Shown: in pieces, positions 50,571-52,941 of the stretch
How the letters are laid out: every line of letters begins with the position of its first letter
Position numbering within the stretch: position 1 is the stretch's first letter
Assembly (NCBI RefSeq): GCF_046105845.1
Contig: NZ_CP151004.1
Reading direction: 5' to 3' (one strand)
Length of the DNA: 64,000 bases
Origin: Escherichia coli
GTDB lineage: Bacteria; Pseudomonadota; Gammaproteobacteria; Enterobacterales; Enterobacteriaceae
Notes under the pieces: model-generated
The model's database searches: none
Told to the model about the DNA's origin: nothing
Seen by the model: only the letters and a program-made list of their open reading frames with translations
Made by a program: the position numbers and the translations under genes

Positions 50571-51095
50571 TCAAGCTCGTTGGTTCCAAGGCATCTTATC
50601 TAACAACCTTGCCATCCCACAAAAACCGCTAATTCCTGCAAACAGTAACCCGGCACCAACAAAGCCGCTTAATAAGAAGAAACCGCTATTTACGGTATAA
50701 CCCAGTACAACGCCGATTAATATTAAACCACCTGCGGCGATCTGCACCTGGCGCATTAACGGCAAGGGTTGAGATTTATTTACCGCTACTGGCAATCCTG
50801 CTTTTTTCCAGCCATCAATCCCATCTTCGAGTAAAAAGATTTCTGCGGGGGCGGCAATCGCTGCTAATTTATCGGCGTTATTACTGGTGCGTTTACCTGC
50901 CTGGCAGTGGAATATAATTTGCTCGCGACGTAATTTAGGCGGAAGACCTGACTGTTCGAGCACGGATAATGGAGCCAGATCTGCTTCAGGAATATGTTCA
51001 CGAAGATATTCATCAGCGTCACGAATATCGATTAACTTTGCGCCGCGTGCGATTAATTCTTGTGCATCATGCGGCGAAATGGTTGTCAAAGCCAT
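50571..51095 (-). CDS. ygaP: Rhodanese-domain inner membrane protein
   Basis: 174 aa; rhodanese active-site Cys (HCQAGKR) and C-terminal TM segments. Confidence 0.88.
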
Positions 51096-51104
51096 AGTGA
51101 CTCC

Positions 51105-51404
51105 TTACGGACAATAGACATTTTTCAGGGTGGCGATAATGGCATTTACCGCCTCATTTTTAATGGAATATAGAATGCGTTGGGCATCCCGTTGGCTGTC
51201 GATAAGCCCTTCGTCCCGCATACGGGCGAGATGCTGTGATGTCGCAGAGGCACTCAGTCCGGTAATGCGCGTCAGCTCTCCCGCACTGGTGCCGGGGGAA
51301 CCGCTAAGCATGCACAGAATCAGCAACCGTTTAGGGTGGCTCATTGCTTTCAATAAGGCCGCTGCCTGTTCGGCACTAGCCTGTAATTGCGCGAGTTCAG
51401 TCAT
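51105..51404 (-). CDS. ygaV: ArsR/SmtB-family transcriptional regulator
   Basis: 99 aa with ArsR HTH. Confidence 0.88.
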   Translation of the reverse strand: MTELAQLQASAEQAAALLKAMSHPKRLLILCMLSGSPGTSAGELTRITGLSASATSQHLARMRDEGLIDSQRDAQRILYSIKNEAVNAIIATLKNVYCP

Positions 51405-51586
51405 AGTTATTTAAGCATTTTCTAAATTAAGCAAACTCTAAACTAAAAATATAATATATGCCAGCATCAGCAGCGTAAATGAGAGTAAAAGCGTAAGCTG
51501 AAACTGGCAGGCTCCGCTAAAATTACTACGCTTAAGAGATAAAATCTCTTTTTAAACAATGAGTAATTTTCTTATAGGGAGTACAT

Positions 51587-51745
51587 ATGGGTTTCTGGAG
51601 AATCGTCATCACCATCATTCTGCCGCCGCTCGGCGTGCTGCTCGGTAAAGGGTTCGGTTGGGCGTTCATTATTAATATTCTGCTGACACTGCTTGGGTAT
51701 ATCCCCGGTTTGATTCACGCTTTCTGGGTGCAAACCCGCGATTAA
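51587..51745 (+). CDS. yqaE: Pmp3/UPF0057-family small membrane protein (52 aa)
   Basis: Translates to MGFWRIVITIILPPLGVLLGKGFGWAFIINILLTLLGYIPGLIHAFWVQTRD; SD gggag upstream; below the ORF-track size cut-off. Confidence 0.85.
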   Translation: MGFWRIVITIILPPLGVLLGKGFGWAFIINILLTLLGYIPGLIHAFWVQTRD

Positions 51746-51828
51746 ACCTGTCCTCACCCCCGCGGCGTTAACGCGCCGCGTTCCTCTGCTACACTCTCTG
51801 AGTGTTTCCGTTAACGAATGAGGTAGCT

Positions 51829-52278
51829 ATGGGTCTGTTCAATTTTGTGAAAGATGCCGGAGAAAAACTCTGGGACGCGGTTACAGGTCAGCACGATAAA
51901 GACGATCAGGCGAAGAAGGTGCAGGAGCATCTGAACAAAACCGGTATACCTGATGCCGATAAAGTGAATATTCAAATTGCCGACGGCAAAGCGACGGTCA
52001 CGGGTGATGGCCTGAGTCAGGAGGCGAAGGAGAAAATCCTTGTTGCGGTGGGGAATATTTCCGGTATTGCCAGTGTCGATGATCAGGTGAAAACGGCGAC
52101 ACCAGCCGCTGCCAGCCAGTTTTATACCGTTAAGTCTGGCGACACTCTGAGTGCCATTTCCAAACAGGTCTACGGTAACGCCAATCTGTACAATAAAATC
52201 TTCGAAGCGAATAAACCGATGTTAAAAAGCCCGGATAAAATTTACCCGGGGCAAGTGTTGCGTATTCCTGAAGAGTAG
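51829..52278 (+). CDS. kbp: Potassium-binding protein with BON and LysM domains
   Basis: Start at [14 protein letters not shown]; C-terminal LysM ([31 protein letters not shown]). Confidence 0.9.
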
Positions 52279-52941
52279 TTAATTGCCAGCCATTGCCTGC
52301 TGGATAATGGGAATTGGCGTCAGTAAATGCTGGCGCATTAACTCACTGGCGCGCGCGGTATCTCGCGCCAGTACCGCCGCAGTCAGGGTCTGGTGCTGAT
52401 CGCGTTTATCTTCCAGCATTTCCACCGAAAGCACTGTTCGCCGCAGCCAGATAAATCGATAGCGCGCCGCCAGATCAAACAACCGTTCACGCATTTGCAG
52501 CAAATAGTGAGAACCACAGCCCGCCACAATTGCAGTATGAAACGCCTGATGACGCAGATCCCACTCATCAAGCATTTTCTCACTGGCGTCACAGGCCTCC
52601 AGCTTACTGAGCAGATGCGCTTTTGCGAGAACGTCTGCCTCCCATTCATCGCCACCGCGGGCAATCGCCAGACTGACCAGCATCGCTTCCATATTGGCGC
52701 GGGCGTCGAAAATATCGAGCAGCTCCTGCTCTGACATAGACGCCACCCGATACCCTTTTTGATTCACCACCGTGACCAGCCGTTCCGCCACCAGTTGCGA
52801 AAGCGCTTCCCGCAACGGCCCAACGCCAAGTGCATAACGCGATGTCAGCAAACTCATCCGTAATTTTTCATCCGGTTGAAAGTTTCCGCGAATAATATCG
52901 TTCTTCAGCCAGCGATAGCCATCCAGAGACGTAATGGTCAT
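52279..52941 (-). CDS. csiR: GntR-family regulator of the csiD-gab operon
   Basis: Start at MTITSLDGYRWL; GntR/FadR-type architecture. Confidence 0.88.
   Translation of the reverse strand: MTITSLDGYRWLKNDIIRGNFQPDEKLRMSLLTSRYALGVGPLREALSQLVAERLVTVVNQKGYRVASMSEQELLDIFDARANMEAMLVSLAIARGGDEWEADVLAKAHLLSKLEACDASEKMLDEWDLRHQAFHTAIVAGCGSHYLLQMRERLFDLAARYRFIWLRRTVLSVEMLEDKRDQHQTLTAAVLARDTARASELMRQHLLTPIPIIQQAMAGN

Follow-up and report, generated by a model that had tools for sequence, protein, structure and literature searches.

The 52-codon Pmp3-family gene yqaE of Escherichia coli: coding strand, regulatory sequences and possible function

Which strand is coding at a short locus between ygaV and kbp, where the ORF track displays a 61-aa frame on the minus strand and nothing opposite it? 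We analyzed this locus within the window, i.e. the whole 64,000-nucleotide (64-kb) stretch of Escherichia coli DNA. An earlier note, made from the sequence alone, had proposed a 52-aa Pmp3-family gene on the plus strand, yqaE, that is preceded by a Shine-Dalgarno (SD) sequence and absent from the track, and had considered the 61-aa minus-strand ORF probably spurious. The results below agree with it on each of these points, and we assign a probability of about 0.97 to the identification of the plus-strand ORF as E. coli yqaE. The gene, its protein sequence and its position all match the reference annotation and publications and are, in this sense, already known; yqaE belongs to the universal Pmp3/RCI2 family of stress proteolipids and, though known, is poorly understood. 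The overall account given here, which comprises the gene, its regulation and its inferred function, is very likely to be the best explanation of the locus.

Coding strand and identity of the gene

When the region 51420..51800 was searched at the default threshold of 60 aa, the ORF lister returned the 61-aa minus-strand ORF alone. The absence of yqaE from the track is thus confirmed, and its cause is the length cut-off, because 52 codons fall below 60; there is nothing biological in it. The ATG of the plus-strand ORF is the first start codon past the preceding in-frame stop. By itself, a 52-codon ORF is within chance; what carries the signal beyond chance is the match to the Pfam Pmp3 family, the 442 tblastn-confirmed relatives among candidate stretches from species-representative genomes, and the codon-periodic pattern of substitutions. 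The peptide matches PF01679 (Pmp3, ‘proteolipid membrane potential modulator’, or Pmp3 / RCI2 / UPF0057) with 69.3 bits compared to a gathering score of 22.9 (E = 2.7 × 10−19), with residues 3–48 aligned to positions 2–47 of the 49 profile positions. The NCBIfam scan gave no family for this peptide or for the 61-aa antisense peptide, a null result that is uninformative for YqaE because both Pfam and RefSeq name it.

The scan of species-representative genomes yielded 80 loci, 45 of which are full-length Enterobacterales orthologues (77–100% identity); the other loci, 57–70% identical, come from other Proteobacteria, a Rubrobacter, and cyanobacterial, Nitrospirae, Armatimonadetes and Rhodothermia genomes. 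All comparisons of 46 sequences comprise the 45 orthologues and the window, with K-12 compared separately. In the plus frame, the pooled pN/pS over the 45 orthologues is 0.118, and of the 52 columns at each codon position, 26 (first), 6 (second) and 49 (third) are variable; judging by these substitutions, purifying selection on the plus frame is strong. The ATG and the GGAG of the SD are found at unchanged spacing in all 45 orthologues, and the remaining leader diverges. The encoded protein is small and hydrophobic (GRAVY +1.23), as the earlier note had described it, and homologues, on whose existence that note had made its proposal depend, are plentiful.Table 1 Features of the yqaE locus in window coordinates.

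Feature	Position	Strand	Remarks
CpxR-type direct repeat GTAAA-N5-GTAAA (GTAAATGAGAGTAAA)	51475..51489	+	112 nt before the yqaE ATG
−35-like hexamer CTGGCA (TGGC invariant)	51504..51509	+	seen in footprint alignment A3; 17-nt spacer to the −10
Sigma-S-type extended −10 CTACGCTT (C at −13 plus TACGCT)	51526..51533	+	conserved block in A3
Conserved leader block AGAGATAAAATCTCTTTTTAAACAAT	51535..51560	+	inverted repeat and U-run; sequence conservation in A3
Predicted CyaR sRNA pairing site	51574..51599	+	SD through codon 4; CyaR is Hfq-dependent
Shine-Dalgarno GGGAG	51577..51581	+	5 nt before the yqaE ATG; read directly
yqaE CDS (MGFWRIVITIILPPLGVLLGKGFGWAFIINILLTLLGYIPGLIHAFWVQTRD)	51587..51745	+	ATG, 52 codons and TAA; two-transmembrane-helix Pmp3/RCI2-family proteolipid
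61-aa antisense ‘shadow’ ORF	51572..51757	−	GTG start; covers yqaE entirely; not a gene
Terminator-like GC hairpin CGCGGCGUUAACGCGCCGCG	51761..51780	+	15 nt after the yqaE stop; weak U-tract GUUCCUCU follows

The opposite assignment would make the minus-strand ORF of 61 aa the real gene and its plus-strand counterpart incidental. It could draw on the greater length of the minus-strand ORF (61 vs. 52 aa), on its being the sole ORF displayed at the default threshold, and on a frame without interruption in E. coli, E. albertii and K-12, the last with an ATG at the position where the window has GTG. However, pN/pS in the minus frame is 1.40, internal stops interrupt it in 30 of the 46 genomes, and the GTG at the ORF start is present in the window only (0 of 45 orthologues). 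The hypothetical product, hydrophilic and of low complexity (GRAVY −1.33), has no match in Pfam or NCBIfam, and the ORF is without RefSeq annotation in both the best-matching genome and K-12; neither purifying selection nor ORF conservation nor family homology was detected for the minus strand. Its openness is fully accounted for by codon usage. Codon for codon, the antisense ORF is the reverse complement of yqaE, and the yqaE of the window, with CTG, CTC, CTT and TTG as its leucine codons, contains no TTA, CTA or TCA sense codons, so that the antisense frame stays open; TTA or CTA codons in orthologues break it. To judge from codon usage, the minus-strand ORF is a by-product, or shadow, of yqaE, and the probability that it is the gene is close to nil. 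Thus, a fixed 60-aa threshold hid a real, conserved 52-aa gene and displayed its antisense shadow, which provides a calibration point for ORF lists, and frame-specific substitution statistics cleanly separated the two.

The identity of the plus-strand gene was established by comparison with annotated genomes. A 451-nt query around yqaE found a match in 5417 of the 5426 complete E. coli genomes, in each case chromosomal, and the annotated features beneath the match are ygaV, yqaE and kbp, with yqaE named in every listed record. In the best-matching genome, RefSeq places yqaE (‘YqaE/Pmp3 family membrane protein’, WP_000508177.1) at coordinates identical to those in the window, with stpA, ygaP and ygaV upstream, and kbp, csiR and gabP downstream. 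The K-12 MG1655 counterpart is b2666 (‘Pmp3 family protein YqaE’, NP_417152.1), which occupies K-12 coordinates 2796870–2797028 on the minus strand, encodes an identical protein, differs in 2 nucleotides of the CDS and has the same neighbours, namely, a divergent ygaV upstream and kbp downstream, followed by csiR/glaR and gabP. The same protein is thus found in the same syntenic place, between ygaV and kbp, in K-12 and in the best-matching genome, as expected of orthologues. There is no difference of substance between the window and K-12; the window represents another E. coli lineage. The region 51400–51850 has a counterpart with at least 99% identity in merely 171 of the 5417 genomes, the majority being 95–99% identical, and the best match (99.8%) is an O158:H23 strain; the small number of such close matches indicates that the lineage of the window has been sequenced less often than others. 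The earlier note had also pointed to ribosome profiling, and our literature search returned no paper that pairs this method with yqaE.

Predicted promoter region, leader and translation start

The tandem GTAAA-N5-GTAAA repeat upstream of yqaE, which corresponds to the CpxR consensus, is the only perfect one in the 64-kb window (0.09 expected). A perfect box of this type is located 90–118 nt before the ATG in 31 of the 46 orthologous loci and is invariant in the phylogenetic footprint of 14 upstream regions (alignment A3). The strict motif CTAYRCTT, the sigma-S-type extended −10 consensus, occurs in 25 of the 46 loci, and of the 18 loci with both elements, 17 have exactly 51 nt from the first base of the CpxR box to that of the −10. 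The tandem box would thereby lie upstream of the predicted promoter, the arrangement expected of a CpxR regulon member. CTGGCA would serve as the −35 element, and transcription would start at about 51539. A generic sigma-70 consensus scan found no plus-strand promoter for yqaE, and the promoter assignment therefore rests on conservation and on the literature.

Published data are consistent with this arrangement. yqaE is among the CpxR regulon members (PMC11575346, PMC7657598), Reg-Seq experiments with gentamicin, copper and acid shock reveal an activator site for CpxR at its promoter (PMC12133099), and a LolCDE inhibitor induces it 8- to 17-fold, together with cpxP and spy (PMC5105897). The yqaE-ygaV spacer is listed in genomic SELEX with the RpoS holoenzyme (PMC5493296), and the Salmonella yqaE transcript is under tight sigma-S control (PMC5437024).

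The sole promoter-like match in the consensus scan is on the minus strand, at 51451–51479 (TTTACG, 17 nt, TATTAT), and presumably belongs to ygaV. On the plus strand, its TTTACG reads CGTAAA (51474–51479), the first half of the CpxR box; given this overlap of the −35 element with the box, CpxR binding could also affect the divergent ygaV promoter. A sigma-54 assignment of the TGGCA block at 51505–51509 was rejected, as there is no TTGC-like −12 element at the right spacing. The published sigma-54 site is a different one: GTGGAATATAATTTGCT, a binding site within ygaP of K-12, is oriented antisense to ygaP, toward yqaE, at a distance of 653 bp (PMC4591121). The window has an exact copy of it at 50907–50923 on the plus strand, within the minus-strand gene ygaP.

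Covariation analysis of the conserved leader block gave no support to the candidate AGAGA/UCUCU hairpin, with 71.9% of the cells paired, no better than in shuffled or slid controls; an Hfq-binding role for the block is a speculative suggestion. No RNA element was found in an Rfam scan of 51000–52400 at E ≤ 1.

The translation start of yqaE is complementary to CyaR, a cAMP-CRP-dependent sRNA. The predicted duplex between nt 34–53 of K-12 CyaR, its unstructured part, and the site in Table 1 has an energy of −21.1 kcal/mol (orthologue mean −19.3), better than 53 of the 54 long-ORF initiation regions of the window and 985 of 1000 random 45-mers. Thus, the complementarity to the translation-initiation region that characterizes CyaR targets is present here as predicted pairing. 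This analysis used the unstructured CyaR region only and real initiation regions for comparison; when full-length CyaR was used, 265 of 500 random genomic 91-mers gave an equally good duplex. yqaE has been reported as a CyaR target by MAPS (ratio 70; PMC5861431) and by CLASH/RT-qPCR (PMC7213987), and a fragment with its ribosome-binding site is bound by Hfq (PMC7145675).

An ACA triplet is located directly before the yqaE ATG, at 51583–51585 on the plus strand, with its first base 4 nt before the A of the ATG. It is kept in another E. coli locus of the scan (L003) and absent in E. albertii and other genera. A paper on the MazF regulon gives yqaE the value 4 (PMC5001579), which we take to be the length of leader that remains after MazF cleavage.

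Downstream hairpin and relation to kbp

The GC hairpin after the yqaE stop codon has an 8-bp stem and a folding energy of −15.3 kcal/mol (z = −3.69). Hairpins of different sequence occupy the same place in Salmonella and Citrobacter, and those of Citrobacter are followed by U-runs. A strict terminator scan missed the E. coli hairpin, presumably because of its weak T-run; a terminator-like match of the scan inside the CDS (51693–51708) was regarded as chance. A second conserved block, CTCTGCTACACT at 51784–51795 on the plus strand, about 35–45 nt before the kbp ATG, is invariant in E. coli, Salmonella and Citrobacter, with diverging surroundings. It resembles a sigma-S-type extended −10 (gCTACACT; the window reads CTACACTC and K-12 CTACACTT), which suggests, as far as a motif can, that kbp has its own promoter downstream of the hairpin.

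Could the 52-codon ORF be a regulatory upstream ORF or leader for kbp, with its product itself immaterial? The kbp ATG, at 51829, is 83 nt downstream of yqaE on the same strand, both genes appear in CpxR regulon listings, and the weakness of the U-tract after the hairpin in E. coli makes read-through into kbp possible. However, the amino acid sequence of YqaE, rather than the mere presence of an ORF, is strongly conserved, in a family that spans many phyla, and the hairpin after its stop is conserved in structure and followed by the promoter-like block. The association with kbp is itself narrow: of the 45 Enterobacterales loci, 11 have a kbp match in the flank that was retrieved, 9 of them at an E. 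coli-like position (+241 to +258), and in E. albertii, Citrobacter youngae and Citrobacter sp. R56 no kbp was detected in the interval from yqaE to csiR. We therefore consider a leader function of this kind very improbable. Given the hairpin and the distribution of kbp, we prefer to read yqaE as a gene that stands alone; it appears to form its own unit, possibly with some read-through in E. coli.

In the loci of E. albertii and the two Citrobacter genomes (L002, L005 and L042), csiR directly follows yqaE, at about +176 to +241 from the yqaE start. Outside Escherichia, Citrobacter, Salmonella and two Superficieibacter genomes, no match to kbp or csiR lay within 3 kb of yqaE; in the two Superficieibacter genomes, kbp is about 1.5 kb from yqaE. 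Outside the close group, ygaV and ygaP persist near yqaE in a few Enterobacter genomes only.

The protein, its family and its possible function

The charged residues of YqaE are confined to R5, K21, H44, R51 and D52. Across a 23-sequence family alignment (Enterobacterales, other Proteobacteria, a cyanobacterium, Rubrobacter, and Nitrospirae and Rhodothermia MAGs), the invariant residues are R5, P13, P14, G16, V17, G22, F27, N30, I31, L33, T34, L36, G37, Y38, P40, G41, H44 and A45, such that the signatures PP-x-G-V in helix 1 and N-x-x-L-T-x-L-G-Y-x-P-G-x-x-H-A in helix 2 are present in 23 of 23 sequences. With this alignment as input, AlphaFold2 predicts a two-helix hairpin (helices 2–21 and 25–50, loop K21–G24, mean pLDDT 86.6); in the model, YqaE has the size (about 50–60 aa), hydrophobicity and two helices of a Pmp3 protein. 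Thus, YqaE has every Pmp3-family feature that can be assessed in silico. A Foldseek search of the model against the PDB gave nothing significant (best E = 4.3, V-ATPase subunit e), as expected, because a two-helix hairpin is too generic for a fold search.

A sequence search of the PDB retrieved the 58-residue ‘PscF | Ric1 protein’ of Chlorobaculum tepidum (7ueb_F, 8gwa; Q8KG87), with E = 0.0013 for the single sequence and 3.5 × 10−7 with a profile, over residues 1–49. PscF passes the Pmp3 threshold (PF01679, 46.3 bits vs. a cutoff of 22.9), and the family thus has an experimental structure. The structure paper describes PscF as an accessory subunit of the C. tepidum reaction centre that is weakly associated and entirely embedded in the membrane, with a lipid and a bacteriochlorophyll sandwiched between it and PscA (PMC9529944). 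PscF is like YqaE in being small, fully membrane-embedded and of Pmp3-family sequence. Unlike YqaE, it is a subunit of a photosynthetic supercomplex that is absent from E. coli, and at several invariant positions of the YqaE alignment it has other residues (e.g. PPAAV vs. PPLGV, GWIPG vs. GYIPG). The link between PscF and Pmp3 seems under-noticed: the accessible part of the structure paper uses the annotation name ‘Ric1’ alone (PMC9529944), and a 2026 paper on PscE and PscF contains no mention of Pmp3, proteolipid, YqaE or Ric1. The PscF structure could guide hypotheses on the contacts of these proteolipids with lipids and partner proteins.

Yeast Pmp3 and plant RCI2 are reported to damp changes in membrane potential and cation leak. 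By analogy, the following sequence of events may be proposed for YqaE. A CpxR-type box fixed 51 nt before a sigma-S-like −10, followed by a leader of about 48 nt, would, in line with the literature, allow activation of yqaE by CpxR under envelope stress and induction by sigma-S in stationary phase; the strong SD and the ATG overlap the predicted CyaR pairing site, which would permit repression by CyaR and Hfq when cAMP-CRP is high, and the GC hairpin follows the stop codon. During envelope stress and in stationary phase, YqaE would then be inserted in the inner membrane, where, by inference from the family and the cited phenotypes, it may damp changes in membrane potential and the leak of cations (Na+/K+), probably through direct contacts with lipids or proteins in the bilayer rather than by catalysis. 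We would give this membrane-potential mechanism even odds. A yqaE mutant is described as sensitive to low and high NaCl and as complemented by a dinoflagellate Pmp3 homologue (Kwok et al. 2020, as cited in PMC7835403). A yqaE deletion had no significant effect on survival once the membrane toxin TisB was expressed (PMC11575346), which suggests that the phenotype is conditional.

Conceivably, YqaE does not act autonomously on the bilayer or its potential, but is an accessory subunit that docks onto a particular larger complex of the inner membrane and tunes it, as is the case for many small membrane proteins of bacteria. PscF, the only family member with a solved structure, is described as a weakly bound peripheral transmembrane subunit (PMC9529944). 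However, YqaE is not known to have a partner, and nothing in our data suggests one: its gene neighbourhood, which is not conserved beyond close relatives, gives no hint of one, and the reported rescue of the E. coli mutant by a dinoflagellate homologue, known here through a secondary citation, favours partner-independent or lipid-directed action. We regard an accessory role as unlikely, and its narrower form, in which YqaE would be a stress-induced, lipid-mediated, PscF-like subunit of a specific transporter or respiratory complex, as a still more doubtful analogy. If an accessory role did prove true, the ‘membrane potential modulator’ phenotype of Pmp3 would be indirect.

The comparison with yeast Pmp3 and plant RCI2, on which the membrane-potential mechanism draws, shows likeness in family (PF01679), size class, two-helix hairpin and stress-induced expression, as well as in a mutant phenotype related to salt, and in the secondary source the yqaE mutant is reported to be complemented across kingdoms. 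The bacterial protein differs from its eukaryotic relatives in its membrane, the bacterial inner membrane being without sterols or sphingolipids, and in its regulation by CpxR, sigma-S and CyaR. Differences in the response to salt are reported as well: according to PMC7835403, the yqaE mutant is sensitive at low as well as high NaCl, and in KCl expression of yqaE falls, whereas that of yeast PMP3 rises.
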